DNA of 64,000 nt from Tubiluchus corallicola. Taxonomy: Eukaryota > Animalia > Priapulida. The DNA is taken from NCBI GenBank assembly GCA_030141605.1, contig JAQGDQ010000162.1, positions 372,001 to 436,000 of the forward strand, read 5' to 3'. The notes below the pieces were generated by a model. The model did no database searches. It was not told the DNA's origin and saw only the letters and a program-made list of their open reading frames with translations. Made by a program: the position numbers and the translations under genes. Shown piece by piece: positions 4,101-56,309 of this stretch (its first letter is position 1; the number at the start of each line of letters is the position of its first letter).

Positions 4101-6134
4101 TAGAACAAGCAGTAAAACGTTTATTATTTAGTAGCCAACGTAATGGTTTTTACTATATTTTACGGGGGGATTATTACGAGATTTTTTACAATGCTTAAAA
4201 TGTAAATTTTGATATGTTCTCCTTTTTTGAGGATTCACACTACTTTAATTGTCACGTCTTTACAAAAATGATTTTAGACTGAAAATACACTTACAGCTTC
4301 TGGCAGCAGCACATTTTTCTTAAATATTGTAGGTTGAAAAGATATCTGTGCGTTATGTCTACCCTCCGAAGGCAGGAGGTCGAAAAAATAGGTACAGAAG
4401 TGACTCTGCAGCATGTAGTGTTCTGTAGTGTATCGTTTTCCAGCTTATATACCTGCTCCGTAGCTGGAAATGACTTGAGGCAGTTTGATAAGTGAAACCA
4501 TTCGTCCACTTACGAAACCAAGCTTGGCATTACTCATCTTTGATCTCTAAGCTGTGACACTATAACTGCTCACTAATGTATATAAATTTCTATTACATAT
4601 ACCTGTAATGGCGTGTCAAAACTTGTAACAAGTTTTGCTAGGCCAAATTCGTTATGAACTACATTTGGTCTGTAGTTGTGTCTCCACTTGACTAAGATCG
4701 AGATTATCCTATAGAGTAGCATGGGCTGCAGCTATTCTCCCTGATGCAAGCTTAGGGGAGTGGATCAAGCTGTTCACTGCAACTGTGCTGAAATAATATT
4801 ATGCGCAATAAATAGTAAAATAGTGGCATTTCTTAAAGAATATTTTTATTGTCGAACAAAAGTCATTCTAGTGTATTCAAAGAATTTGCAATAAGTTTTA
4901 CTTCAAGCTATGCAAGTGTTGCTAAAATATATTACCAGTAAAATATATTCAAGACAGGAAGAGCCACAATTTCATTATCCTTGGGGGATCCAAAAGGTCT
5001 TAATCTAGCACGTCTATAGCCATTGGCTTTTTGTGTTCACCTAAATTAATTACTTCTGTTTTTTTACTTCTTGCACAATTTTAGCTCCATTGTACGCATG
5101 TGGTTCAGATGAATTTGACTGTAAGATGCCTCTCTTCTGGTTGCCTGACCCTTACTATAATTGCATTTCAAAGGAATTCCTATGCGACGGCAATTTCAAC
5201 TGCGCAAATGGACGTGATGAAACTGTAGAAGCGAACTGCAGTAAGTATCTTAGTTATACTTTACGTTCTTCAGATCGAACAGCATGAAATTGCAGCTGCT
5301 CATACAAACGTGTTTAATGTCTTACACTGCCGTGACTGCTCATAGTAGTGAAAACACAGATCTTTCCAATAACTGCAAACGCCGGCTTTGCATTAAGGCT
5401 AAAGGTTTTCACTGTAAATGTTTTTACACTATTTTCTGCACAGTCTAAACTAGCATTGAGAGTTTGTTGCTAATGTTAATAGAAATTGCACCCCGTCTTA
5501 AATTATAATTCGGAACAATCTAATCTGCATATTAAAAAGAAACATAATAATTTTCAAGAATGGCTTACCTGAAAATATTATAACCACAGTAATTCTGCAG
5601 TTCCCTCATCGGTTCTTGGGTGTTACATTCGCTATTTAGGTGGTTACTAGTACCTGCATCTATGAAACGCGTTGAATAAAAACCAGGCGCAGTACCAAAA
5701 CAGCCAATCAGATAATTGAAAAGACGCATCAATGTAATGTGTTGAACTACAGTTTAAATGAGTTATCGTGACATTTAAGTGCATCTGAAAGCTGCAATTC
5801 ATCAACGTTTTTCCACCCACTAGACTTTTCTTCATTCAAAATGTAAGTGATGTTAAATTCTGGCCTATGAACGCGTTTTAAGCTGATTTCAGTAACTGCA
5901 CTTCAGAAAGTCTAACTGATTGCAAAAATGTTTAAACGATCAGGTTTGTTTTTTTCTCTATTGTAAAGTAAAATGCATCTCAGCTAGGATATGGCAAGAT
6001 AAATTCACAGCTAATTATAGAAGAATTATTTATAGGAAAAAAAATAAAACATGTATGCTTCTTTTCTATGGTATTTTCTGCATTGATTTCCAGTTCTGAG
6101 ATTAACGCCCCTCCCCGGAAGAAGCAAACCTTAG
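62..6134 (+). CDS. Predicted secreted protein: signal peptide, VWC domain, LDLa, Ser/Thr-rich linker, LDLa (exons 62-332, 2184-2336, 3989-4111, 5085-5240, tentative last exon 6094-6134; about 247 aa)
   Basis: Exon 1: hydrophobic leader then C..YRNGE..PDPCNQCFC..CKRIVC..C..PGFCCP.YVC (VWC spacing). LDLa repeats CKKDEFDC..CISKNYLCDMFPDCTNGYDEIYC and CGSDEFDC..CISKEFLCDGNFNCANGRDETVEANC. All introns GT-AG and phase 1. Terminal exon is uncertain. Confidence 0.8.
691..1156. repeat. Compound microsatellite (GT)/(GCGT)/(AGGC)/(AGAC)/(AG)
   Basis: Directly visible; source of the six low-complexity ORFs at 593-1264. Confidence 0.97.
2513..2921 (+). repeat. About 410-bp interspersed repeat, copy 1
   Basis: Nearly identical to 5473-5881; ORFs 2687-2875 and 5647-5835 are near-identical translations. 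Confidence 0.92.
5473..5881 (+). repeat. About 410-bp interspersed repeat, copy 2
   Basis: Direct repeat of 2513-2921 with a few substitutions/indels. Confidence 0.92.
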
Positions 6135-8780: not shown

Positions 8781-9700
8781 GATGACACCCACAGTGCACT
8801 ATGCATTCTCGTCGATGTTTTTTAGATTTCAGATATGAACAATATGAACAAATACAGCTTAATAAAGTAACATAATCAATATTGAACTTGATCTTACCCC
8901 AATGTATGCGTTTTGTATGTTTTTTGCATGCGTATGGTTAGGTTAAGTAAATATCGTATCCTGCTGCTGTGTTTTTTCTGCAAACAGCTCTGCAAAGATT
9001 GGCTTCGAGGTGCAAAAATTTCGGTCTGTGCAGTTTAGTATTTTTGTTTATTTATATGACTTCCAATTGTGCACTCGTATTATTTGCTGTACGTTTTGTA
9101 AGGTTCTCTGATATTTATTTCTTGGTTGAACCAGTAATGCGTTTTGTAAACTTGTTTTGTTGAATTTCTGACTTGCACGAACTTAAAGCAAGCAATAACA
9201 AACAATAAACAACCTATGCAATTTGCAAATAAGAACAAACAATAAACAACCCATGCAATTTTCAAATTCTTCATAGCAAGATCGTCATCCTCTTGTTAAA
9301 TACCCTCAGTATTAATGATTTTTTAAAAAAATTGGTAGTAAATAGCTTATATTATTAGCTGTTTAACAAACAAAATAAATAATCTACAAAACAATATGCA
9401 ATATTACTAACAAGAGAAAAGAACTCTGCAAGCAGGAACCGCTCATTAACTTATTAGTATTAAATTAATTCATTAGTATTAAATCTACAATTGAGGTTGT
9501 CAATTGTGACAGGACAAAGAACAACATATCTGATTTCTAAGGATAAGTTTTCAAGACAATGTTATCAGACGACAACAGCGCTATCATAGCCACGTTTTGG
9601 TCCTGTGCAGGCCCAAAGTCTATTCTGTTTCTCAGAAATTACTTCAGTTTTATTAACAAAGTGTAGAACTAGAAGTTACTCCACGTTTCAGCAAATGTTG

Positions 9701-10114
9701 TTACGATTTAGTTGCTGTAATGACTAGATAATATTTGCCATCAGAAAAATCCAAAGCCCATGGTGAAAGTTGTGTGGTCTGTACCTTGACTTCAGTCATC
9801 CCAGCGCCATGTAGAGCATCAAGGACACTGTCAATAGCATCAAGAACACTGTCTGTAGCATCAACTGGCATGCAGTGCAGCCTCTTTCTAGCGACATCAC
9901 AAAAATCTTCCATGCATACTGTCGTCAATACTAATTTGCTGCACGATTTAAACAGCGTCATTACTTTTTTTTAAGTATTGTTTATACTCAGCGGGGGTTT
10001 TACAGGCGACTTTTAAGGCAAAATTGGAAACGACAACGTCAAAAGCGCCCCGGTGAGGAGTTACTGGATCATGTTTACGTAAGAAATGCTGTTAAAGTTT
10101 TCACAGCTTGCCAT
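9701..10114 (-). pseudogene. NNMT-family pseudogene: exon 1 start fused by deletion to exon 3
   Basis: ATG at 10114 gives MASCENFNSISYVN, then jumps to DPVTPHRGAFDVVVSNFA..; SAM-binding exon 2 is absent, +1 frameshift in the A-run at 9965-9972, 21-bp internal duplication (DSVLDAI). Confidence 0.88.
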
Positions 10115-11390
10115 GATGAAAATAAAGCAGCCCATGTGGGAAGTATACTGCTTGCTGGTTAGGACGTTACCTTTGTTTGTACATAAAGTAATGCAATATC
10201 ACCATTACTACAATGGAATCCTGACATTGTAGAAAAATTCTCGGTCTATTGTTTGTCTGTTTTTCTTGCAAAACTAGCAAAACAAATGGGTGAACATTTT
10301 TTACATAACTCAGCGTCCTACAATCCAGTGTTTGATGTCAGAAGGAAAATGGAACGTAGTAGTAAGACGATTTCCTGACACATTATCGAGCCTGGCGCCT
10401 AGGATAAGCCACTGAACCAGCAGAGGCATTTCAGTCCAATTCAGATGTGTACACAATACAGCCTTCCTCCACGAAATCAGCAGCCAAAATCAGCACGGCA
10501 AGTGAAACCGCCCAGAGACAGAATCGAAGTGGTTCATAGTATCACTACAACTGAAGTCAGTAATACTGTTACTGTTGTCAGTACCCTTAAGTTAACATGA
10601 CTGGGTGTAATTATATAAGATGGCGGCTGAATACTGACAAATTGCAAAAACAAACACGTCATAACTTCACTTCACTTCCTTCTCTTTTTAGTTTTTTTAT
10701 TACATTTATTCACTAAGATTGTTTGCCACCAAAAAAACAAAAACAACCAAACATTTAACATTCTAGTAAATAATAAAATGATAGTAAAAATTGGTTAAGT
10801 GCCTAGCTGGAGAAAATACTTCTTCAACCTTCACAATCATTTAATAATGTTCTTTTTAACATACAAGGTCATAAATAAGTGGTTAGACAAAGTTGAAGAA
10901 ATTATGACTTGGAAAGTTATTTCTCTAAGTTAAATAATAATATTAAAGTTGACCAAGGTTTAAGGCTAAGTCTAAGAGCCCGAGTTCAATTCTTAATGGA
11001 GTCAAGGTTTGAATGAATGAATGAAGGTTGTGTGAATCGCCTACACGAAATGCTAATTCAATCAATGTTTGTTAGCACAGGTTTCTAGCTCTGCCCGCAA
11101 AATAATTACAACTAAATTTTCCACAACATACGTACATATAAATGTATATAATTATACACATATGTAATAACTTATTTATGGCCTTGCGAGAGGCAATCTA
11201 TGTGAGGACGACAATTACGACAGGATCAGAACACATAATTTTTAAGTATTAGTTTCTAAGATAATGAACCAATAGAGTCACGTTCTGATTCTAGACAGGC
11301 TGTTCAGCAGATATTACTCTGGCTTGCTTAAGAAAGTGTAGAACTAGATTTTATGCCAATTTGCTGTTCTTGTAACAAAACTTAATGTTT

Positions 11391-14300
11391 TTACAATTTA
11401 GTTGCTGTAATGACTAGATAATATTTGCCGTCACAAAAATCTGCAGCCCACGCTGAAAGGTGAGTGGTCTCTGTCTTCACATCAGTCATTCCAGCGCCAT
11501 CTAGAGCACCAAGAACCAACTCTTTATCAACTGGCATGCAGTGCAGCCTCTTCCCACCGACATCCCAAAAACTTTCGTCGCATACTGTCGTCATTACCAA
11601 TTTGCCACCTGGTTTAAGCAGCGTCATTACGTTTTTTATGCACTGTTTATAATCGGCGCGAGTTTTAGGGGCGACCTCTATGGCAAAATTGGAAATGAGA
11701 ACGTCGAAAGTGCCCCGGTGAGAAGGAGTTACCGGATCACTCCTGTTGGCATCACATTGCAGGATTTCCTTTACATGGTTTCTCACTTGCTTCAGACGTG
11801 TTTCGTATTTTTCCTCCAGTTCACTGAATTTGTAAAAAAATTATTTAAATTAAAATAGTTTAAATTTTAGTGGAGTGTTGTATGTGCATTTTGGGTTTGT
11901 ATGCTGCAGTCAAGTGCGTTAGTGTAATCAGACATACTGGGCGTGTACGACAAACACTGCAAGTAAAACAATTCCTACGAAATTTCAGCAAAGCATTCGA
12001 TAGGTAATGACAGAAATCATCGTGAAATTTTCTCAGTTGGCAAACAGTTTATTCTTCTGTTTACTCATTTATTCATTCTTTCGTCTTCCTATTTGTTAGT
12101 AAACTAGGGTAACGCTTTAGATCATTTTTACAAATATTTGACCCATATTTGAGTTAATAGGACAAGATTTGTTCCCCATCTCTGTCAAAGATGCTCCTAT
12201 TATTTACTGAAAGAGTTACGTTGAGTTGGTAGAGATAATCTTAGTTACCGAAAACGATATTTCAGTTGCATATATTTATAGGTACAAAAATACACGTCAA
12301 ACGACTTATGCAAGACCAATTTAAACGGATTACGTAAACACTAACATTCAATTTTAAACAACATTTTTTAAAGCCGCTCAGGCTAAACTTTATGAATATA
12401 ATAGTTAAAATGGTCTAGCAACTATCAACCTAAATAAGCACTATTTTCTTCTGTAAAATAGCATTCGATAACCTCCTGCTGTGTATATATATTACAGAAG
12501 TCGATATGTTACATTCCCACGTTATAGAACAACGCCAAATTTCAATTTGAAACAATAGATTTCCGCTAGATAATTTAACTATGTTTTACTGTGAGCAGGT
12601 GCCAGGGGCTTCATAACCTAGAAACCTTTCACATATTTGTCTGACTGTGTTTTACTATGAGCAGGTGCCAGGGGCTTCATAACCTAGAAACCTTTCACAT
12701 ATTTGTCGTAGCTCTTTTTATAAGCTAGATTGTTACACCTCAAGTGAAATACCACGTGCAAAAAACATGCAACATGTTTATACCTTTTATTCGAAGATTG
12801 TATGATGAGATCATAATAGTTGCTCCAGTCAAAATGATATTCTCCTGTTTCTTTCCATTTTTGCAAAACTCTGACGTTTGATTCTGCATAATCTGCCATG
12901 ACAATATCGGTGAAATTGTCACTCACAGCCAGCACGTAGGCCAAAGTAGGGCCACATCCGAAGTCCAAAAGTCTGCTACCTGGCAACCCATCTCCTGTTT
13001 GCATACAATTACTATTATTGTTGTTGTTGTGGTGGTGGTGGTGGTTTATTGTTACTTACTTTTGCTGCTGCTGCAACTGCAACTGCTACTGCTGCTGCTA
13101 TTGCCACTGCTACTGCTACAACAACAACAACAACAACAACAATAACAACAACAAAAACTACTACTACTACCACTACCACTACCACTACCACTACCACTAC
13201 CACTACCACTACCACTACCACTACCACTACCACTACCACTACCACTACCACTACCACTACCACTACCACTACCACTACCACTACCACTACCACTACCACT
13301 ACCACTACCACTACCACTACCACTACCACTACCACTACCACTACCACTACCACTACTACTACTACTACTGCTACTACTACTACTACTACTACTACTATTA
13401 TTATTATTATTATTACCAATAAAATTAATGCACTTGAAATGTGTACTAGAACTTCAAAAATAATTTATAACACGTCGTATAGTTCTTAAAATTCTGCGTG
13501 GAAATCGAAATTTGTTGAGTTAATTTGATTTGGTCTCCTATCTTGAACTTCTTTTAGCTGTTTTCATCATCATTGTCATTATTATCATCATTGCTATCAT
13601 TACATATAAAGCGTTTTTATTTAACCACATAGACAAACAAGAGTGCATCTGAATGAAATATAACTGTATAGCCAGCATTACGCCACTTCATACCGGTTGC
13701 TTTGGGGGCGAGAACCTAGGACCAGAATCATCAATGATCTTACGAAACGGATCATTTATACGATCGTTGCAAAATTAAGTGGTATTTATCAAGCTTCTCA
13801 ATTTTCTCGTTCTCAGCATAATTTACTGAATCCTTGTAATGCGTTTTTGTTGTAGTAAACAGTCATCGTTTTAGTGAATTAATTTTGTTAACACTGTCTT
13901 TTTGTATATAATTATGTAAATAGCGTCTCCTCTTTTATGTGTGTTTTTGTAGTTGTAGGCCCTTTGCTCTGTTTTATTGGAATTTTAGTAATTGTAGTCT
14001 TATGTGCAGTCTTAACGTCTTATACATGTGTGTTTTATTTAGCTTATGCGTGTATTTTATATGGATTTTAAGTCTGAAATAAAAGTGAGAATTGAATTGA
14101 ACTTTCGTAGGATGTTTTGCAAAGTTTCATTAGCACGCTTGACAAAAGTACCTAGGATTTTCTCTTATAAATTTGATACGTTTTGCGTAAGATCGTTTTT
14201 ACAAATGTTCCTGCGAACTCGTTGATAAATCAAACCTCACCCTAGTAATTATCTGCTATTTCATTATTGTACACAACATTATCATTAACTTATCATCATT

Positions 14301-14454
14301 GCGTACTGTTAGACAGCTAGTGACTGACTCAAACATCTAACTTACCTTGGTGAAAGACTTCTCGGTATTTTGTAAACACGTTTTCGTAAAAGTCTCTTAA
14401 CACAAAATATTCGTTTAAGTAAGCGGTGCTGTCAAAGTTTTCACAGCTAGCCAT
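11391..14454 (-). CDS. NNMT/PNMT/TEMT(INMT)-family SAM-dependent small-molecule methyltransferase, 250 aa (exons 14454-14346, 12994-12784, 11823-11391)
   Basis: F...AYL..YF N-terminus, motif I LLDFGCGPT, IVMADYAESN, FDWS, CDAN..DP, FDVLISNFAIE, LLKPGGKLV; GT-AG introns of phase 1 and 2 give an open frame. Confidence 0.93.
12578..12707. repeat. Two-copy tandem duplication of about 65 bp in methyltransferase intron 2
   Basis: TGTTTTACT.TGAGCAGGTGCCAGGGGCTTCATAACCTAGAAACCTTTCACATATTTGTC occurs twice. Confidence 0.9.
13010..13416. repeat. Compound microsatellite with a long (CCACTA)n tract
   Basis: Directly visible; abuts the exon 2 acceptor. Confidence 0.97.
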
Positions 14455-16034
14455 GATGAAAATAGCACAGCCCGAGAGCAAAATGTATTGCGAGCTTTTC
14501 AGGCCTTTCAACTTTGCTCGTATGTACAGTAACGCAGTATCACTAAGAGTGGGATAGAACCCTGACCTTGTAGAGATTTTTCCGGTCTACTGCTTGTTTG
14601 TCTCTCCTATTGCTAGTAAAATACTCGCTTTTTTCATTTTCACGTTTTATGGTGGCCATTTTTTAAGTTTAATATAGTGTCCTACAACCTGGAGTCCGGT
14701 ATTCGATATCCTGATCTACTCCTAGTGAAGTGTAGTGACCAGGCCGGGGCCTGTCTCATTATCAAGCCTATCGTCTAAGATGAGCCATGAGCCAGCAGAG
14801 GTATTTCTGTTATGGCTGGATATGTACACAATATGTCCTTCTACGAGGTGAACAGCCACAATCAGCATGGCGAATGAAACTGCCAAGTATGAATTTAATT
14901 GGCTCAAAATATTTTACAGCTTTTAACTATAGTCGTAATACTGTTATTGTTGTCAGTACCGTTAAGCTACCGTGATTGAAGTAACTGTATAAGATGGTGG
15001 CTGAATAGAGACAAATTGCAAAAACAAACGTGTCATAACTTGACTTCCTTGTTTTTAATTTCTTTTCATTACATTTATACACTAAGATTGTCTGCCAGCT
15101 AAGCAACAAAAACAACAAACTGTGTAACAGCCTAGTAAAATATCACATTTTGTGAGGAACATTGTTTTATCTCACAAGCCGGAATCCAGTATTAAACGTC
15201 AATTTTATTCAAAATAGAACGTAATACCGAGACCATTTCCTGACTTATTATGAAGCCTCTCGTCTAGGATGAGCCACTAAACCATTAAAGGTTTTCAGTT
15301 CCATTCAGATGTGTAAACAATACGTAATTCGTCTACCTGGTAAACAACCAGGAACAGCATGGCGCGTGAAACCGTCTAGAGCGAGAATCGAAGCGGTTCA
15401 AAATATTTTATAATTTTTCACTGAAGTCAGAATTACTGTTACTGCGGTTAGTACCATTAAAGAGCTATGATGATTGGGGTAACTGTATAAAATGGTGGCT
15501 GAATAGTGACAATAGTGTCATAACTTCATTTCATTCTTTTTATTTTCTTTTCATTGCATTTATTTACCATCACCTAACCAAACAAAAACAATAAAATATT
15601 TAACGTTCCAGCAAACAACAGCATGAATAACATAATAGAGAACACGATAGAATATAATGACAGAAAAAAATATGTCACGTGCCAGGCAAGAGAAAAATTT
15701 TCAACTTTAATGAAATCATTAATGTTCTTTTAACTCTCCTTGCCCAAAATAAATGAATAAACAAAGTTGAAAAAAATCAGCACATAGTTCAAAAGTATTG
15801 CCTTTCCGATCTCCTAATAAGTGACATCTTATAAATAATTTCGGTGGTATATCGATATATATAAATGTCGTCTCATTGGTTCGTTGATGGTTTATTTTTC
15901 GAGGAGCCATCGGGCGGAACGGGGGACGAGAAACCTTCAAAAATCCCCCTTTTTACCATTTTTTCGCAAAACGTATACCACTTATTTCTAGAGAATTTGT
16001 TGCGAGGCGAATTTTTTTCAGTGGAAGTAGAATG

Positions 16035-19000
16035 TTACATAACGTCCATAGGCACCACATCTCTGTCTAAATAGCCTTCCATTTTTGCAACGTCTGACAG
16101 TACTTCCACCAGATCCTTTTCACCTTCATTTATTGCGATATCAAGTAGCCCATACTTTACTGACTCCACGTAGAGAGAATACAAACTATCTTCTGGAACT
16201 GCCCGGCTGGTGGCGCTGTCTAGTACCACTACTTCCTCGTCGTCACTGTCATGATCACTCGCTTCTCCCTTTCTTAACTGTCTGGCTAATGCGGCTCTGG
16301 CTTCTTGTGATCTTCTACGGAGTGCCACCTGTTCGCTCTCCGGCAGCTTCTCAATGCCTATGAGTGATAAAAGTAAAACAATTGCATTAGTGTAATCATC
16401 CAGGGGCCACGCTATTAAATGTAAGAGATATTTACTTTTGAACTACACAATTTAATTACTTTTTACTTTTGAACTACACCCTTTAGGTACTTTCGAACTA
16501 TACCCTTTAGGTCCTTTGGAACTATTCCTTTTAATTACTTTTGTACTATACCCTTTAGGTACTTTGAAATATTCCTTCTAGTTACTTTTTAACTACACCC
16601 TTTAGTTACTTTGGAAGTATTCTTTTTAGTTATTTTTGAACTATTAATTAAAATTATAAATTAAATACACACCGAACATTGCACAAGAATTCTACCGCGA
16701 AGACGTGCAATTTAGAGTTAGGAAATCACAGCTTTGAGACCAAGGACAGCCTAAAGTGTGACTGAAATTGAAACTAAATATGAGAATAAAAATGCAAACT
16801 GTGGCTTGAATATTAAAGTCTATAAAGCGTGGCATCAACAAGATGTCTGACATTTGAAGACTCTAACCTTTCTCAAGCCAGGCAATTTCTCTGTTTATTG
16901 TTTGTGTCATTTCCTCCTGGTCTAGCTGTAAAGACTGCTGGAAAAGCTGCAGTTCCTCTTCCTAAAAAAAGAATAAACTTACATTACATACTTAACTCCA
17001 TCAAATACATCTAATATTATTGCATAATTAAGTAATAATTAATCCTGCATTGCCTGGGCACACAACGACGGATTTAGCAGTGACATTTATTGCACATCCA
17101 AAGAAAATGGGCCTCAACTGAGTGCTATAAAGAAGGTAAAATTAGCAATCCATGGCCCGGCCCACGTATAAGACAAGTCGCAATTACAGGAAACCAATTA
17201 AAGACACTAGGCCTATAATTATTATAATCTTAAAGTCAAAATATTTATTAATGATGTTAAAAACACACAATTAATGGAATTTTGATACCAAACATGAAAC
17301 ACGGGTGTATTAAACTTAAAACAGGTGTGTTTCAAGTTTGGTATCAAAATTTAATTAACTGTGGGTTTGTAACATTATTAAGCCCACAAGGTATGTCTAA
17401 TTACCAGTAATTAATATTTACTTCGATACATACAGCTGACGATGATTCGCTTATTGTACGACGCCCAGTTTCGTGGTCTGCAGTCGTACGTAAAATGTTA
17501 ATGGCTTCATTAAGGTTGGTGCGAAGTTCACCAAGACGCGTCCTGAAATTAAATCAGCAACCATAATCATCATCGATCGGTGCATGTATGATCATTGATC
17601 ATCGATGCTGTCCTTCTATTTAAGTGCACTGCTTTCAAGGTGATTTTCCAAAACCACAGCTTACATGTATATTGCCATGTAAACCACAGTTACACCAAAA
17701 AGTGTGCGCATGTTTAGGAAAAGAGTGCTTACGAACGCAAACACAGTGTGCTGATTGGTTAGCAAGGAAAAAATCGTATGCCTTTTTTGAAAGTATGCTT
17801 AAAAAGTTTAATAGTGTATGGCACGTTTTGGATCCCTCCAGTATAACCCCAACTTCAATACTTACTCAGTGTCGCCCACGGAGACAATCCGCCTTATCCA
17901 AGAGTAATTGCCAATTTTTTCCAAGAAAGCCAAATATTCTAAAACAAGGGAAAATATTTAGTCGAATTTGCAAAACCACAAGTAGACATATACTAAGTTG
18001 GAAGTTTAAGCTCTGTAACGGAGCAATGGTTCAATAGTATACGGACAAATAGGGCCTAACTGCTACTACAAGTGAATGGGAGAGAAGATAGAGAACGGAC
18101 CAGAAAATCATTTAATCAGCTTTTATTATGTTAAATAGAACATGATCACAATACAGTGCATATAGAACAAAACATTGGTTTTCTAAAAGGAGCATTTCGA
18201 CAAGACACTGTTGCACTACTGAGTGAAACGTTCCTACAAAACTAACGAGCCACAAACATACTAAATATAAGTTACACTAATAATAACAATAGCAATAATA
18301 ATAAAGCCGGTGAATATTTGCAATGATCGTGTAGAGTGTAAAACGCAGGAAAACGAACATACCTTTAATTACCACCTGACAGTTTTTCAAAGCGTCGTGG
18401 TGCAGACATTCTGTCGAACCTGTCTCCTCTAAATATTTAAACAGCGGCTGTACTGAAATTACCAGACGAGTCGTTGCTTCGCAACTTCTTTTGTAAGTTT
18501 TAACCTGCAAAAACGGTCTTACTACTGTCAATGCGTTCGGAATCAATCCTGCAAACCTTTGTTCATTGAAGGTCAGTTACTACATTAAGCCTCACTTATT
18601 GCTACTTCAACGGAAGATGTTCTCAGGACCTGGTGTAGTTTTTTCCCTCGCGGTTCTTCTCTGTGGAATTTTTTACCAGAGAATTGCTTTTGTCTGAACT
18701 ACGACCTCATTCCAGTCAAGAAGCAGATTAGTAGATGCCTCCTATCATTTCTATGATTTCTACTTCCCTGGACAGTATTCATATTTTGTTTCTCTGTCAT
18801 ATTTGTATATTTGGCTGTATTCGCTTTGTTTTGGGGCGACGTGTATATAACAAAAATCATAAAACAGTAGTCGCCGCTTAATAGACTCAGTTTAGGACCG
18901 ACTTGTTTTGACCCAATTAATCGATTGAACCTATAAACCGATGGGTGTAGTAATACTGCCATAGAAATATGATTCATCAGCTTGCTATGCACTGCAAGGG

Positions 19001-20111
19001 CTTTTAATCAATTTACTCATTTTGGTTTGCTGACTGCTCAATTTCAGAACGTTTTGCAATATTCTGCGAAAGTACTTTGTGAAATTTTCGACTGCACTGC
19101 TGCACACCTCTGCACCATCTTTGGAAGTTTACCGGACTGCTCTAAAATTTTCAGTTTCTCCTTAACTGTTAGATTTTTACGCTTATGCTCCATGTTTCAA
19201 ACTTCTTAACTCTATGCTCTTATTTGCTGTAACTATGATGTTTACTCTTCTAAGTCACAAGGAATACTGACTGATTACTGTACCTGCATTTTTGACTATT
19301 AACTCATTAAGCACGAAAGCGTAATTTGCGACTAGAGCATCAAAAGGAAACTGCTAGGCAAGTGATTAAATATTTAGCTTCCAGAAATTCTTTGGGTAAT
19401 GAGGTTAATTGCAGTGGGCGGGGTAAGAGATTCAAAGCAAAACCGCTAGGCTAGCCTATTAGCCCATGATAAACGTACCTGTTTACAAACAAAACGGTAC
19501 TTAACATGATTGTTTCTACATATATAATGCACATAAGGAAAGTAAAGATGACATAAAAGTAGGAAAGGCTGTTTGGGCACATACAAATGTCTTATTTTAA
19601 GTACGTGAAGGAAAAACATTGAGTCAATTAACCACACTTATTTGAGTCAATTACCGATAGTTTTATGTATATTTGAATAAAAGCGGCCCGTTCCAATCGT
19701 TTTTGAGTCAATTAAGCGATTGAGTCTATTAACCGCGAGTCTATTAAGCGGCGACTACTGTAATAGTTAAAATAAATAAATCGTTATAACGCTAAATAAA
19801 CAATCAAAAGATTCAGATACTTTTGACTAGAACATTTTAGTGTATTACAACATTCTGTTAGAATTAGAAAAATGCAGGTTAAAAGGGACGTTGAAATCTG
19901 CTTTTATTTTTGACCGTTTGTTAAGCTACAAATTGTCTTAAATTCGTAGGTAATACACTAAAAACCATATGACAAACGAAGCTGTTCCTCGACAGTAAAA
20001 ATATATGAATAACTCAAATTCCTTACCCAAGAATAGGTAACTACTCACCCTCTTAGAGGCTTCGATAAGACGAGTGACTTGTTTTGGTATTTCTACAAGT
20101 AGCACAGCCAT
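16035..20111 (-). CDS. MLKL N-terminal four-helix-bundle (HeLo-like) domain protein without pseudokinase, 267 aa (exons 20111-20049, 18504-18363, 17938-17866, 17542-17434, 16961-16868, 16357-16035)
   Basis: Six GT-AG exons (63+142+73+109+94+323 = 804 nt; intron phases 0,1,2,0,1) join into one stop-free frame: [113 protein letters not shown]... AATAAA on the minus strand at 15891-15896. Domain call by eye. Confidence 0.8.
16410..16645. repeat. Degenerate minisatellite of about 31-33 bp (TTACTTTTGAACTACACCCTTTAG core) in the last intron of the MLKL-like gene
   Basis: About seven imperfect tandem units. Confidence 0.8.
17248..17381. mobile_element. Small fold-back MITE-like element with TTAA ends
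   Basis: Arms 17248-17302 and 17327-17381 (core AATTTTGATACCAAAC.TGAAACAC / GTGTTTCA.GTTTGGTATCAAAATT). Confidence 0.65.
18865..19760 (-). mobile_element. Non-autonomous pogo/Tigger (Tc1-mariner superfamily) deletion derivative
   Basis: Perfect 24-bp TIRs CAGTAGTCGCCGCTTAATAGACTC (18865-18888; reverse complement 19737-19760), TA at the right flank; from ATG 19193 a frameshifted CENP-B-type N-terminal HTH remnant MEHKRKNLTVKEKLKILEQSGKLPKMVQRCAAVQSKISQSTF. Confidence 0.88.
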
Positions 20112-20479
20112 TATCTCATATCCATACATTCACTAACATAAACTTTGTGAAAAATAACTTCTCGTGGTGTGTGACTGTAACAATTACAACAACAAGTAAC
20201 AGTTGACGTTTATATAGGCCTTATGTTTACATTGTGATGCTGTATCTAGCGGACATGTAAACAATAGTGATTTCTGTGCATAGCGCAAAGTAAACTTGTG
20301 TGACCATGATTATGATTAGGCCTATATTTTATAAATATTAATGATGTCATATGATCATATGCAACACCATGCGTACTGCAACGATGGCCATGCATAGATT
20401 AGAAACCTTGCTGTTTACAAACATTGTTGTTATAATTTAGTTAGAAAGATAATGCGACCGCTCATCAAATATTGGTTGC

Positions 20480-21345
20480 TCTCACTTTGTCACAAAGTCA
20501 ACGGCCTTCACAACATTCTGGGAATCCCCATCACTTTGGGGAAAACAGATTGTGATATGGAACGTCCTTCAATGCTTAGCTTAGGTAAATGGTGGTGAAA
20601 TGTATGTATAAACTATAAACTAATGCGCAGAAGATAAACAGGTACCTTTATTTCAGACTTCTCGTGCATATAGCATAAAATACAATTATATAAAAAATTA
20701 AAACTACAAATTACGTATCAATATTTACAAAGACTAATCACAGAGTTAAAATAAAACAAATATACAAATAGCTTGTCTCTCCACTTGGTCCAAAGAATGC
20801 AAGTGTACGTTACGTTTAAAATATTGGCTATAACAGAATTGCTTACTTTTATTGTATTGCACATGGTACTATAAAAATATAAAAAAATAAAAACATTATT
20901 GAAATGTTGCGCTTCAGCGGATCATTGGCGTTACCTCACACTCCCATGGGCCTCGCTGTAATGTTCTGGGAATCCCCGTTTCTTCTGGGTGCAGATTGTG
21001 GTAAAGAATGTCCTTCAATGTTTAGCTTAGGCAAACGCACCGCAGTTTGAGAGTACTGAATTATAGCTATACAGCAGATCAGTTACCTCACTCTCACGTG
21101 GACCTCGATGCAATGTTCTGGGAATCCCCGTTTCTTCTGGGAACAGATTACCCTTAAAGAATGTCCGCCAATGTTTAGCTTAGGCAAACGCACTGCGGTT
21201 TTGGGGGTATTGAGTTATAACTCCACAGCCGTCACTGGTGTTACCTCACACTCTCACGTGGACCTCGATGCAATGTTCTGGGAATCCCCGTTTCTGCTGG
21301 GAACAGATTGCGGTAGAAAATGTCTTACAAGGCTTAGCTTAGGGA
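20480..21345. repeat. About 155-bp repeat: three tandem units (starts 20930, 21082, 21240) plus a detached partial unit near 20480-20590
   Basis: Recurrent GTTACCTCACACTC...AATGTTCTGGGAATCCCCGTTTC...CAGATT...AATGT...TTAGCTTAGG. Confidence 0.9.
20516..21289. promoter_or_regulatory. Four composite GAS (TTCTGGGAA) / kB (GGGAATCCCC) motifs upstream of the MLKL-like gene
   Basis: TTCTGGGAATCCCC at 20516-20529, 20964-20977, 21116-21129, 21276-21289; extra TTCTGGGAA at 21135-21143. Motif match is exact; function is inferred. Confidence 0.5.
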
Positions 21346-21529
21346 GATGCACTGTTACTACAGATTGTGAGCTATTGTTGCACTGGAGCAATTATTCTAA
21401 ACATTTTACATTATGCATTTTTAACAAGTGAATATAGACTATTAGACGAAAAACCGCCGTCAAATGGTCTGGGATTAAAGCATTATTCCCATAAAAAATT
21501 TCCCGAACCCGTGCACTTTCAATTTCAAT

Positions 21530-22128
21530 AGCAGTGTCCATTTTTTGCTGAATTACTGCTGCGTTTACTTGTCTTGAGGGCAGATTTCTTTCATTTTACA
21601 ACCTGCCTGCCCACAATGAACGTAATGTGTGACGTATTGTGACGATGACAATAAAGTGCGACGTATTGTGACGATGACAATGGTTGTTTTATAAATTTCC
21701 AATACAGATCTGTATTTTCTTCTACAGGTTAGCTGCTGTGTGAAATGGCAGTTCCCAATAAACTATTTCGTTGAGAATTTTTAATTTGCAAACATTAGGT
21801 GGGTGAGCTGGTTGACGTACCTTTATGTTGCGAAGTGCAATAGAAGGGTCGTTCTCAGACGTTTCGAATGCTAACAGTTCAATGTTTTCCGTTTTCTTTA
21901 TGCCTTTAGATTATACACCATCTGTAAATAGTAGTTAAACAGGAAAAATAATAGCGCAATTCAAAACTTCGTAATCAAAATTCTTTTTCCTGTCTTGCCT
22001 TCAGTTTTAATAGTTTTTGTTTATTTATTTAGTCATCATTATTTGTTTATTTATTTATTTGTGCGCTTTTGTTTCTTTAACAACTCCCCGGCACAAGGCT
22101 TGAGTCACGAAACTCAGAGTCACTAGTC
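21530..22128 (-). pseudogene. Inverted, decayed duplicate of GABA-B-like exon 4 with flanking intron sequence
   Basis: Reverse complement aligns with about 29710-30265; exon copy (about 21821-21921) keeps AG/GT ends but has a 1-nt deletion producing an in-frame TAA. Confidence 0.88.
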
Positions 22129-24852: not shown

Positions 24853-25248
24853 ATTGACTGAAAATATATGAATCATTAACAAGGAAAAATAAACTAGGAA
24901 AAATTATATGAACAAGCTGCTGTAAAAGTTAGGTACAGATAAAGAAGATGCAGTCTCTTTCACAAAAATTGTAAGGATAAGTGAGCATTTTTGAAACTTG
25001 AGTTTATTTGAATACAAAAATTTCTATGATTTTTTTACATTACTCCATTTAGACTCAGTGTACAGCTTCCCCAGCTATTGTGGAATATTTTTCACATTTT
25101 TGATGCAGTCTTGACTTTATAGATCTGTACTTGACGATACTACTACTGTACTACTACTGTACTTATATAAGTACTACTACTGTACTTATAGATCTATAGT
25201 CTTGACTGTAAATACCTATCTAAAATACACAAATATCTATGGAAAAAT

Positions 25249-43866
<18,618 letters not shown>

Positions 43867-49402: not shown

Positions 49403-50317
49403 TCACTGGTGTTGAGATGTTCTTCTAGCGGTGTCAACTTTGTCCGTTATTGACATTTTATCAAACAAAAGTTTTTTGAAGGCCGTTCTGAAGTCTTTGC
49501 TTGAGAATGCGTATATGACTGGATTAACCGCACTATTGGTGAACCCAAGCGCAAATAAAAGCGCGGAAGCCTCGTAGTTCCACGCGTAATTACCTGTACA
49601 ATAACTCCAGGCTTCGTACAAATACGCAGAACCCCAGCAGAGCACAAAAGCAAATGTAACAATGGCTAGGATTTTCGTTGCTTTCATCTGAACCATGCTG
49701 ATCTCGTCTCCTTGGCCTTGGCTATGTATCTTCAGGACTTGCTTCCTTGCGATTCTCCAGATCAATGCATACAAGACAAAGATCACGAGCATCGGCAAGA
49801 AGAAGGCTATAGTGATGTCGAGTATCATCAAATTGAACATGCCGTACATCTCTCTCAAGACGCAAATAGCAATTGCCTCAGTAATGGCGAAGAACCAAGT
49901 GAAACAAAGTGCCACAGTGATTACAGTCTTGGTTACAATAACTGAGTACTTGAATGGATAGGCGACACCTACGTATCTTTCAGCAGCTATTACACACAAG
50001 TGAAATGCACTTGCATTTACCATTGCGTACATATAACTGTACCTTATCACCAGGAACGCTGTGTCACCAAGGGCTTCTTGACTGAACAATGCTGCAATCT
50101 CAATCGGTGCAGAAAACGCAACTGCTAAATCTGTTACTGCAAGTGAGGCAACAAGAGCGTTAGTTTTTGTTCGTAAACTCGGATATTTATACATTGAAAT
50201 TACCACTAACAGGTTTCCAGGGATTATTAAAGTAGCTGATAAACCGAGAATAAAGACTGTCAGTATAGCTACAGGTTTGTATAAGTTAACTAAGTAACTT
50301 GCTGTGTGATTTAGCAT
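49403..50317 (-). CDS. Intronless rhodopsin-family (class A) GPCR, 304 aa
   Basis: GNLLV (TM1), SLAVTD (TM2), AERY, W4.50, FFLP, KATK..FVLCWGS, NSAVNPVIY, helix 8 FRTAFKKLL. Confidence 0.95.
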   Translation of the reverse strand: MLNHTASYLVNLYKPVAILTVFILGLSATLIIPGNLLVVISMYKYPSLRTKTNALVASLAVTDLAVAFSAPIEIAALFSQEALGDTAFLVIRYSYMYAMVNASAFHLCVIAAERYVGVAYPFKYSVIVTKTVITVALCFTWFFAITEAIAICVLREMYGMFNLMILDITIAFFLPMLVIFVLYALIWRIARKQVLKIHSQGQGDEISMVQMKATKILAIVTFAFVLCWGSAYLYEAWSYCTGNYAWNYEASALLFALGFTNSAVNPVIYAFSSKDFRTAFKKLLFDKMSITDKVDTARRTSQHQ

Positions 50318-52289
50318 GCTTATTGCATCATTAATATATTATTTAGCTGAATCACACAAACTGAGCAACAAAAATAGTCCTAATGAAAAGATTCCCTTTT
50401 CACCATTTTGAGTTTCACCATTGATGGAAATGTCATTAGCGCTTTTAAACAATGAAACGATCTTCCAACATGAAGGTTCATTGCAAAACACCATCACAGT
50501 ATCTCCACTTTCACAATATATGCGGACTCTTTTTACGAAGCGTTCTGAAACTTTTTGCTCTAAATTATCATCTTAAATTTACCATCATGAATTCCGAACG
50601 TCTCTCCGCAAACTTGGATTTTACAGTCGAGCCATCACTAGCGCGCATGCGCCAACACCTCCACGGCGAGCCGTCATCATCTTAATGCCCATCACGCTTG
50701 CTGTAGACATTGGCAGGCAGAATTCTAAAATTAAAGAAATCTACCTTTCAGACAGGTAAACACAGCAGTAATCTAGCAAAAACTAGACGCTGCTATGCCA
50801 GTGGTTTGTCAGCATTACTTCTGCAGTGAGTATTTGCCGTTCATTACATCTCACTGATGAATCTAAACCTTGCATACGTCTCATAAAACATGATTGGCTA
50901 AGTATAGAAAAAATTGCCACCAAATGCCCCACCGGACACCGGTTTGGATACCGGGAAGCATAATGCTGCTAATTAGTATAAAATGCACTCATGCATATTC
51001 CATCCTATTTGCCGCCAATATATTATGCCATTATAATTCAACGCTTTTAGTTATCCAATCCACCTTGCTGATAGGAGCTTATAAAACGTTTGCTACTTGA
51101 TCAGACCCGATTGTCCGGGGACTACAATATAAGCTGTTCTTGAACTGATATTGCTCTGTAAAACTCAGATCGTTTCCTAGTTTCTGAGTTTCTATCGTAC
51201 ATGAAATGGTGATTATTCTGATCTCAATGTTAACACAATTTATAGAAGCACTTTTATATCTGTATCTGCTATGTTAACTGCAGACATGCTAACATATCCA
51301 AGGCACAAGATAGTGTCACTATATGCCGGCAATCTTGTCAGAATATTGACAAACAATGTTTTCAAAAATGTTGTGCCATTTTGAAACAGTGTGTCTTATT
51401 TTTGTCCAAAATGGGAACCTTCTTAGTACAACATTGTACAACAATATTTTATAACCATTTTCAGGCAAGATTAATATAGTAGTCATGGCAACGGCAATAA
51501 TAAATAGGAATTAAAAATTCAAGAATTAAAAAACAAAGAAAAAAGAAAGAACAAAATATGATGTTTCAAAGTGCCACTGCCGTTTATCTTCACGACAAAG
51601 AACAAAAGAATCACATAAAATTACCAATACTAATTTCGTGGGGAATTTTTTATCGTACATAGTGTACTGACCACCCCTTTCACATTAAATGGAAGTTTCT
51701 GTCGAAGCCGTATAAAATCGGTCTTCTCTGCTCTTTTACTGGTCCAGTTAGTTTAATTCACGACCGTGTAAACTCCATTTCATCATTATTTTTGAATCTA
51801 CTTCATGTAATTTTCCAATAAAGGTGTCGTTTCTCTCACACGTCATTGGATGGATGTCACTAATAGACTGTTTGGCTCCGCATCTGCTGGTACCGAACCA
51901 ACCTGGGTAGTTTTAGGCCTTGTCGGCCAGGTACCGTCACAGGCCTCAGTCACAGAAAAGATTGGGACACAATCAGAAACTAACGTGTTCGCTTGAAATG
52001 TCGTATGTTTGCTTTTTTCCTTGTTTTTAACTGTGAGATTTTTAGCATTGAACAGTAATAAAAATACGTTTTAATAATAACGTTAGCATCTTTCATAGAG
52101 GACCAGTTTACAATGAACGTGTAAGCTTAATTTTTGATATATGATAGCTGAAAGAGAATAATAACATAGACCTGCAATACCTTTATTACAATACAACACA
52201 GTACCATACAACACCTACTATATTTAAAAAAAATTATAGGTAAATATATTAAAATTCTTACGCCTAATAAAATTCAATACAACACCTAC

Positions 52290-54341: not shown

Positions 54342-55271
54342 TTAACACTTATCATATCTCAAAATTTCCTTAAAAGCTACTTTAAATTTTCTATTTGTCA
54401 ATGCGTAAATGAAAGGATTAATTCCGCTGTTGCTAAATCCAATTGAAAACAAAAGATATTTAAAAAGTGGCATGGATTCAAATGAAATATTAAACATAGT
54501 ATTATGTATGTATAAGCAAATGGAATATATACGAGATGGACCCCAACATATCAGAAAAGCAAGAGCAACTATGGCTAAAGTTTTTGTAGCTTTCATTTGT
54601 ATCACCCCTGTTCTTGACTTTGACCTTCCTTGACCTTCGTTGTGTATCTGTAACACTTGTTTCCTTGCAGTTTTCCAGATCAGGGCATACAAGACTAGTA
54701 TGACTAGCATTGGCAAGTGAAAAGCTCCTACCACTTCGGGCACCATTAAGAAGTACATCTTATTCACATTGATCAACGTGACAACTGTGGCTGCTTCACC
54801 TATAGCAAAAATCCAGCAAACGCAGATTCCAAAAATAACGGTTTCCTTTCTCACGATAACGTGATACTTAAATGGCTGCATGACGGCAACGTACCTCTCA
54901 GCAGCTATCAAGCATAAATGAAACGAACTGGTGTTTATCATTCCGTGCTGGAAACTGCCTCGTATCACGTTAAACAGCAGGTTTGAGCTAACCTTTACAT
55001 TCAGCAGTCGTATGATTTCGGCTGGTACTGACATTCCAACTAACAGATCAGCCACTGCTAGCGACGCAATAATCGCATTGGTTTTGGTCTGCAAATATTC
55101 AAACTTGTAAACAGCTATTAGCACTAACAAGTTTCCTGGAATAATAACGATGCTAGACAACAAATACACGGACACTATCACGGCTACCAGGGTATCGTCA
55201 AACGCACAGTGATGTACGTTATCAGCTTCAATAGGGTCTTCTATGTCTGTAGCATTCCATACAGAAGTCAT
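54342..55271 (-). CDS. Intronless rhodopsin-family GPCR, paralog of 49403-50317, 309 aa from the first ATG
   Basis: MTSVWNAT (N-glycosylation site), IPGNLLV, SLAVAD, FHLCLIAAERY, FHLP, QMKATK, CWGP, NSGINPFIY. Confidence 0.95.
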   Translation of the reverse strand: MTSVWNATDIEDPIEADNVHHCAFDDTLVAVIVSVYLLSSIVIIPGNLLVLIAVYKFEYLQTKTNAIIASLAVADLLVGMSVPAEIIRLLNVKVSSNLLFNVIRGSFQHGMINTSSFHLCLIAAERYVAVMQPFKYHVIVRKETVIFGICVCWIFAIGEAATVVTLINVNKMYFLMVPEVVGAFHLPMLVILVLYALIWKTARKQVLQIHNEGQGRSKSRTGVIQMKATKTLAIVALAFLICWGPSRIYSICLYIHNTMFNISFESMPLFKYLLFSIGFSNSGINPFIYALTNRKFKVAFKEILRYDKC

Positions 55272-56309
55272 GGTACTTATAGACCAATAATGACAAGCTG
55301 AGTGTGACAATTGCACTTCTTTTAACTTGTGTAGATGAATCTGGCAAAGACGTAGCCAGTGATCAAGTGAGGCCTCAGCTTTGTTTCGCTTTTCTGTTTA
55401 GATATGCTTTGTTCACTGCATTAAGTGCAATCGCTACGCATTGTTTTCCCACCTGCGCAAAGTTGTTTCACCTGCAACTGACGTGTCGCCATTTTTATTT
55501 GCAGTTTCCAATAGAGTTTTATTTGTAGAAGCCTGATGGAATAAAAGATAGATCACATTTAGTGTCAACTGTGGTTTTAGCTTAATGAATGGCACAGTTT
55601 CAACAGATATTTAGTGTTTAATGTCAGATGGGAAACATTAGCGACATGCATTATAGTAATTTCCTGTCTCATTTTTGTAAGCTGAGAGGTTGATTAGTAT
55701 GGCGTCCATGAAAGCAGAGCTAATATGATGTCAGTAGAACTTGTTGGTTAGTCATTTGGACAACTTGGCTATTTGATTAGCGGTTAGTTTTTCGATCACG
55801 CAGGCCGTCCGTCTAATGTGACGTCTGCATGTTTGTCTATTTTTCAGTGATTTGATTGGCTAAACAATGAGTTCTAAAAATATTGTCGATAGTCTTGTAA
55901 CATTTAATCATGGAATTCATTTGTTCTGTAGTTCAGAAAAAATACTTGAAGTGTACTAGAGGCTAGCAACTAATGAAATTTCCATACAATTGCATAATAG
56001 CAGTCAAACTGTATAAAAAATTACAAAGGTTTATGCTTGTAATCTCGTTTGCAAAAGGTTTAAGCGCTGGAAAACATTGACAATTTATTGGAGATCACTT
56101 ATTGGTCACTGATAAGTTTCTAAATTGGAGCTGTTTGTAGAGGGTGCCCCAAAATTAACCTCCCACAAATCAATTTAAATTACACTTTCGCCGCATCTGT
56201 GAAACTTTGGTCCTCCATCCTGGACGATCTTTAATCCTTGGTGAATAAAGATCCTTGCCTTATAAATAATAAACTCCATCATGAATTCAAATAACGAGTA
56301 AAACTAACA

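Follow-up and report, generated by a model that had tools for sequence, protein, structure and literature searches.

A locally repeated, overlapping STAT/NF-kB-type element upstream of a predicted MLKL-like gene in the priapulid Tubiluchus corallicola

Why should a 14-bp sequence, TTCTGGGAATCCCC, have stayed the same in each of four repeat units that have otherwise drifted apart, just upstream of a predicted MLKL-like gene? The locus lies in a stretch of 64,000 nucleotides of the Tubiluchus corallicola genome (contig JAQGDQ010000162.1, positions 372,001 to 436,000; hereafter the window, in whose numbering all positions are given). Because the 14-mer is constant while the rest of the unit drifts, and because it fits the STAT and NF-kB patterns, the units are likely to act as an immune-responsive enhancer; judging from the sequence, we put at roughly 0.6 the probability that they represent a STAT/NF-kB enhancer that was multiplied in place and is kept by purifying selection.

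The repeat units and their constant blocks

There are indeed four units, as the initial annotation described, but they do not form the single tandem array of 155-bp units that it envisaged (Table 1). The starts of the 14-mers are 448, 152 and 160 bp apart, the one array found by TRF comprises 2.7 copies (20926-21343), and the uneven spacings, together with the limited part of unit 1 that can be aligned with the other units, therefore indicate three tandem units and one older, displaced unit. Units 2-4 (periods 152 and 160 bp) show 82-87% mutual identity, whereas unit 1 reaches 64-67% in a wider alignment and 65-71% in a narrower one. The units are 300-1060 bp upstream of the TATA-like box, and the 14-mers are 405, 853, 1005 and 1165 bp from the ATG at 20111, which agrees with the 0.4-1.2 kb given at the outset. 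The repeat had no match in Rfam at E<=1, its consensus folded at -6.9 kcal/mol with a covariation term of 0 (so that it does not qualify as a structured non-coding RNA), and no match to its reading frames on either strand was found in Pfam, giving no sign of coding use. A short high-copy dispersed element lies 190 bp beyond unit 4 (21541-21598).

Table 1. Coordinates of the repeat units, their motifs and the predicted gene
Feature	Position	Strand	Remarks
Unit 1, proximal, most diverged copy (aligned core)	20475..20591	.	64-71% identity to units 2-4
AT-rich spacer between units 1 and 2, ~322 bp, GC 0.27	20592..20913	.	likely low-copy dispersed element (contig depth)
Unit 2, approximate bounds	20914..21065	.	
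Unit 3, approximate bounds	21066..21225	.	
Unit 4, partial	21226..21354	.	
14-mer copy 1: GAS-type 9-mer and kB-type 10-mer, 5-bp overlap	20516..20529	+	exact match
14-mer copy 2	20964..20977	+	exact match
14-mer copy 3	21116..21129	+	exact match
14-mer copy 4	21276..21289	+	exact match
Second GAS site, perfect, TTCTGGGAA, unit 3	21135..21143	+	mismatched versions at 20535, 20983, 21295
Second invariant block TTAGCTTAGG	20576..20585; also 21022, 21175, 21334	+	exact in 4/4 units
TATA-box-like TATATAAA, predicted core promoter	20209..20216	-	~100 bp upstream of ATG
Predicted coding exon 1, ATG 20111	20049..20111	-	weaker in-frame ATG at 20129
Predicted exon 2	18363..18504	-	AG/GT ends, frame kept
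Predicted exon 3	17866..17938	-	AG/GT ends
Predicted exon 4	17434..17542	-	AG/GT ends
Predicted exon 5	16868..16961	-	AG/GT ends
Predicted last exon: long helix, acidic linker, two helices, stop codon	16035..16357	-	
AATAAA, predicted polyadenylation signal	15891..15896	-	139 bp past stop codon

The 14-mer occurs at these four places and, at up to two mismatches, nowhere else in the window; shuffled sequences held 0.12 copies on average, and none of 100 shuffles reached four. Scanned with the consensus patterns TTCNNNGAA for STAT-binding GAS sites and GGGRNNYYCC for kB sites, the window has four distinct kB sites, all of them inside the 14-mers and fitting on both strands, where a Markov model of the window would give about 1.3. 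This fits the motif assignment made at first. GAS matches are commoner (23 in the window, of which five are within the repeat, the fifth being the perfect second site already noticed in unit 3). An overlapping GAS and kB pair is expected in 1.2 kb with P of about 0.0008 under the Markov model, a rough figure that comes from two events in 3 Mb simulated.

Two further features had not been described. Exactly 10 bp after the first GAS-type site, in every unit, there is a second GAS-like 9-mer, with 1, 2, 0 and 1 mismatches in units 1 to 4, so that it is degenerate in three of them (of all 9-mers in the window, 0.6% have at most one mismatch to GAS). In addition, the 14-mer is not the sole invariant block of the diverged unit: TTAGCTTAGG, at 58-60 bp counted from the first base of the 14-mer, is likewise unchanged throughout, and the window has no copy of it outside the units. 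In three of the four units its edge is overlapped by a C/EBP-like 8-mer, but the block as a whole fits none of the consensus patterns scanned, and its conservation cannot by itself tell which factor would bind. There is also a 6-bp invariant run, CAGATT. The units have no ISRE-type match, the nearest being at 21517.

How surprising is the constancy of the 14-mer? The invariant run covers exactly what the two motifs span jointly, from the first base of the GAS site to the end of the kB decamer, and outside it 41-45% of columns are invariant. Column permutation of the two alignments gave P = 0.0008 and 0.0026 for a run of at least 14, and P = 1-2.5e-5 for runs of at least 14 and at least 10 together. 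We also simulated divergence under four neutral, indel-free models, with CpG hypermutability and rate variation among the features covered, tuned to similar or slightly higher identities. In these, P was 0.015-0.052 for any invariant run of at least 14, the fair figure if the motif is ignored, and 0.0002-0.0012 for invariance of this 14-mer, the fair figure if the motif names the place beforehand; about eight changes would be expected in the 14-mer, and none is seen. The 14-mer is thus conserved in excess of the rest of the unit, although it should be borne in mind that it was chosen post hoc out of a large scan.

Might the unit be a common dispersed repeat? Contigs of public sequencing runs were aligned to the window at a threshold of at least 80% identity, and at that level they revealed no high-copy dispersed family: the units behave as a single locus and were amplified locally. 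Relatives as old as unit 1 fall below the threshold, so that more diverged copies may exist elsewhere. In one run (X1), summed contig depth over units 2-4 was 173-346, against 177-311 over most exon bins; two spacer bins (20523-20924) reached 1353-1594, against about 140-350 in neighbouring bins. Over a MITE in intron 1 (18865-19760, bounded by perfect 24-bp terminal inverted repeats) the summed depth rose to 437,031, about a thousandfold above the units, depth not being the same as copy number. Only 11 contigs of this run, at that identity threshold, fell on 20870-21420, eight of them at least 99% alike.

The same run hints at variation in the array. Records listed at depth 94-108 do not differ from the window over 20914-21278, whereas those listed at depth 85-91 do. 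One of the latter, a haplotype-depth contig, joins the tail of one unit to a head like that of unit 2 and to the body of a further unit, and then exits into unrelated sequence. Nine of its 12 differences are listed, and the one among these that falls in the 14-mer is T>C at position 4 of the GAS site, where the consensus leaves the base free and which the kB decamer does not include, so that both patterns are kept. Another comes out of unrelated sequence and differs at four of the eight bases before copy 4 but shares the 14-mer itself; it overlaps by 30 bases a shared record (depth 158) that runs into unique flank. The differing contigs appear to come from a second haplotype, in which the array has been rearranged and sequence has been inserted; the first of them could also come from a second locus at half depth. 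The same contigs recur in X2, from the same sample. A run with the same species label (X5) had next to none of the sampled words in common, and its piece over exon 1 showed 28 differences in 144. Its one contig on 21094-21140, at depth 3, has four differences (the one listed is outside the 14-mer), and its loose end looks by eye like a unit head, a weak hint of conservation across lineages. Another run, X3, was left out (one contig over 20606-21010 in one alignment, none in another), and a run guessed to be RNA aligned to repeats alone and was uninformative on expression. The two-block pattern of 14-mer and TTAGCTTAGG had no match in viral and metagenome contigs.

The gene downstream and its neighbours

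The predicted gene has six minus-strand exons with AG/GT ends, joined in an open frame of 267 codons. Three out-of-frame upstream ATGs at 20119-20139 (minus strand), one with a stop overlapping the main ATG, could damp basal translation. The initial annotation called the gene MLKL-like. Residues ~1-114 of the predicted protein seem, by eye, to follow the pattern of the MLKL N-terminal four-helix bundle, and on this likeness the gene is a likely candidate for the MLKL type, although single-exon searches gave no match that would confirm it. None of the six exons matched Pfam; homologue searches found none among 2291 and 5 candidates; an atlas search gave no usable match, and none at 0.9 or above; and a PDB sequence search gave nothing for exons 3 and 4 and two designed repeat proteins only for exon 2. 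The single exons queried were of 21-47 aa, and pieces so short often give no match. Three matches in a search of representatives were to long repeat proteins, whose scores sum over repeats, and were rejected. Two matches of exon 6 to viral contigs (29% identity, one 8-mer seed, E-values against 21 candidates) were put down to chance. In MLKL a two-helix brace follows the bundle; here, structure prediction gave a long helix (pLDDT ~70) at the opening of the last exon and a tail of two helices at modest confidence; the exon-2 model (pLDDT 48) was unusable, and the exon-6 model had no fold match at E<=0.001.

What might control such a protein? The kinase switch was said to be missing, and no kinase-family match was in fact found in 121 minus-strand frames of at least 38 aa between 1200 and 25200. 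It does not follow, as had been proposed, that the gate is transcriptional, because a lock at the level of the protein could come from the ~150 residues that follow the putative bundle. These include an acidic linker (residues 191-215, net charge -7) and the helical tail (-9), and the putative bundle (residues 1-114), at +4, is only compatible with a lytic role. The sequence SDHD/S in the linker resembles a caspase-type Asp site. In the part of exon 6 that encodes the linker (16196-16262), four of the five allelic differences listed change a residue, a raw count and not a dN/dS ratio.

A short high-copy dispersed element lies in intron 4 (17326-17381). Next downstream are NNMT/PNMT-type methyltransferase copies (9700-15340, minus strand), of which one is apparently intact (exons near 14460, 12995 and 11822) and one broken (near 10130-9704); their upstream flanks have been duplicated as well. 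On the other side is a multi-exon class C receptor gene (25192-43132, plus strand), GABA-B-like by eye and with an ANF_receptor match on one exon. A tandem repeat of 89 bp lies at 35441-36024 (6.6 copies, 95% matches). Also in the window are two GPCR genes of the rhodopsin family, each with a single exon (minus strand, 49406-50338 and 54345-55397), and, on the plus strand, exons that encode VWC and LDL-receptor class A domains (2-337 and 5045-5284).

How might the repeat act, and what else could explain it?

Could the conserved blocks be real but serve other factors, or another gene? They might be bound by TGGGAA-binding proteins and a factor for TTAGCTTAGG, or act on the receptor gene, with a tissue-specific or repressive output; we regard this as unlikely. 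The second block and CAGATT lend themselves to such a reading, and p50-type dimers, which are able to repress, favour G-rich symmetric kB sites. The receptor gene, divergent from the MLKL-like gene and starting about 4 kb across from the repeat, could be a target. Overlapping STAT3 and NF-kB sites, moreover, have been reported to be competitive (PMC3316628). Nevertheless, the invariant run stops exactly at the joint boundaries of the GAS and kB sites, the CSL consensus YGTGRGAA is absent from 20112-21600, and the allelic change listed alters the base before GGGAA with both patterns kept. The TATA-like box and ATG nearest to the units, moreover, belong to the minus-strand gene.

An improbable reading, in our view, is that the units are a neutral tandem duplication or decayed minisatellite, in which the 14-mer survived by chance or through short gene-conversion tracts, the coincidence with the motifs having been picked out afterwards. 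The simulated frequency of any 14-bp invariant run leaves room for this, as does the instability of the array between haplotypes, and in the promoter of shrimp ALFPm3 the repeat was dispensable and it was a single kB site that mattered (PMC5627258). Such a run would, however, have had to land exactly on the only kB-type sites of the window, with GAS sites overlapping them; chance would also have had to produce two invariant blocks, for which the permutation probability is very small, and the further copies of the other haplotype retain both consensus patterns. Least convincing, and in our judgement very unlikely, is the view that what has been duplicated is an alternative promoter, or a first exon that is non-coding and spliced to an acceptor just before the ATG, with the 14-mer at or inside the transcript start: minus-strand donor-like 9-mers (7/9) do lie 20-30 bp past 14-mers, at 20485, 21086, 21097 and 21257, and splicing to the AG at 20133 would eliminate one of the upstream ATGs, but the spacer has similar donor scores (20645, 20846), the acceptor has just 53% pyrimidines, and the units are without a TATA-like box whereas one sits 100 bp before the ATG.

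We therefore return to the immune-responsive enhancer, for which the following course of events can be proposed. Unit 1 and the forerunner of units 2-4 would be the two products of an old duplication; unequal exchange would afterwards have multiplied the distal copy, and may still be reshaping the array between haplotypes. STAT and Rel/NF-kB proteins would bind the 14-mer and raise transcription of the MLKL-like gene. A single 14-mer would have room for a dimer of STAT or of Rel but not for both, and for that reason an array of copies would allow the promoter to be driven by one of the two pathways or, from separate copies, by both, while the second GAS site would permit STAT tetramers. Induction would prime the lytic effector. 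The bundle may be kept closed by the acidic linker and the helical tail until the protein is cleaved or binds a partner, and because of this possible lock induction alone is perhaps too little to kill.

A bolder version would have a kinase-less pore former gated mainly by dose, with the 14 bp as an either/or switch, GAS sites spaced for tetramers and a haplotype-variable array that tunes the lytic threshold; this we hold to be a long shot. Taken together, the original observation was confirmed with the corrections given above, and the interpretation placed on it was partly supported. If the enhancer reading is true, the locus would provide a ready-made footprint of STAT and NF-kB control on a gene for lytic death in an animal outside the usual models, its natural alleles would form a series in which to test how site number and STAT/Rel competition set output, and it would point to a kinase-less MLKL-like architecture.

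Comparison with known systems

Each of the ingredients is known (overlapping STAT3/kB sites, tandem GAS pairs, clustered sites, STAT-induced MLKL), and the value of the locus therefore lies in their combination and its testability. Such an array, or a kinase-less invertebrate MLKL, was not found described in the literature searched, which consisted of main texts and included few subscription journals. Overlapping STAT3/NF-kB elements in vertebrate genes were reportedly described by Zhang and Fuller in 1997 (PMID 9266835, as summarised in PMC3316628). Several genes have such sites, for which the factors have been suggested to compete, and here too a GAS-type site overlaps a kB-type site (PMC3316628); the accessible part of another paper (PMC4856808) holds nothing on site overlap. 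Unlike the vertebrate elements, the predicted sites described here are in an AT-rich invertebrate genome, locally multiplied, apparently polymorphic between haplotypes and placed before a likely lytic effector. A 2xGAS probe, with its two sites 10 bp apart, is bound by STAT1 tetramers (PMC4284922). The spacing is matched by the two 9-mers in all four of our units, but the second site is perfect in only one of them, and the spacer holds the rest of the kB site.

In human MLKL, STAT1 and IRF1 contribute to induction by interferon, in line with the initial annotation's statement on mammals, and promoter sites have been predicted (PMC6310689); the gene considered here likewise combines a likely MLKL-type product with predicted STAT-type promoter sites. 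Since the human protein is both induced in this way and gated by phosphorylation, induction does not exclude a protein gate. Human MLKL, however, keeps its pseudokinase and requires phosphorylation, whereas no kinase was found in our frames, and no ISRE-type match in our units. MLKL occurs in deuterostomes and a rotifer, and invertebrate N-terminal domains alone, of the kind that residues ~1-114 seem by their pattern to resemble, kill human cells (PMC11476962). The 12 MLKLs compared in another study all keep the kinase domain that we failed to find (PMC11507063), and in a sea cucumber the switch is reportedly caspase cleavage near the N-terminus of MLKL, not phosphorylation (PMC11932488). Finally, the promoter of ALFPm3, in which the tandem repeat is dispensable and the kB site is not, resembles this locus in that a kB site adjoins a tandem repeat and lies some hundreds of bases before the gene for an immune effector (PMC5627258), but the shrimp repeat is itself without a kB site, whereas in T. 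corallicola every unit carries one.
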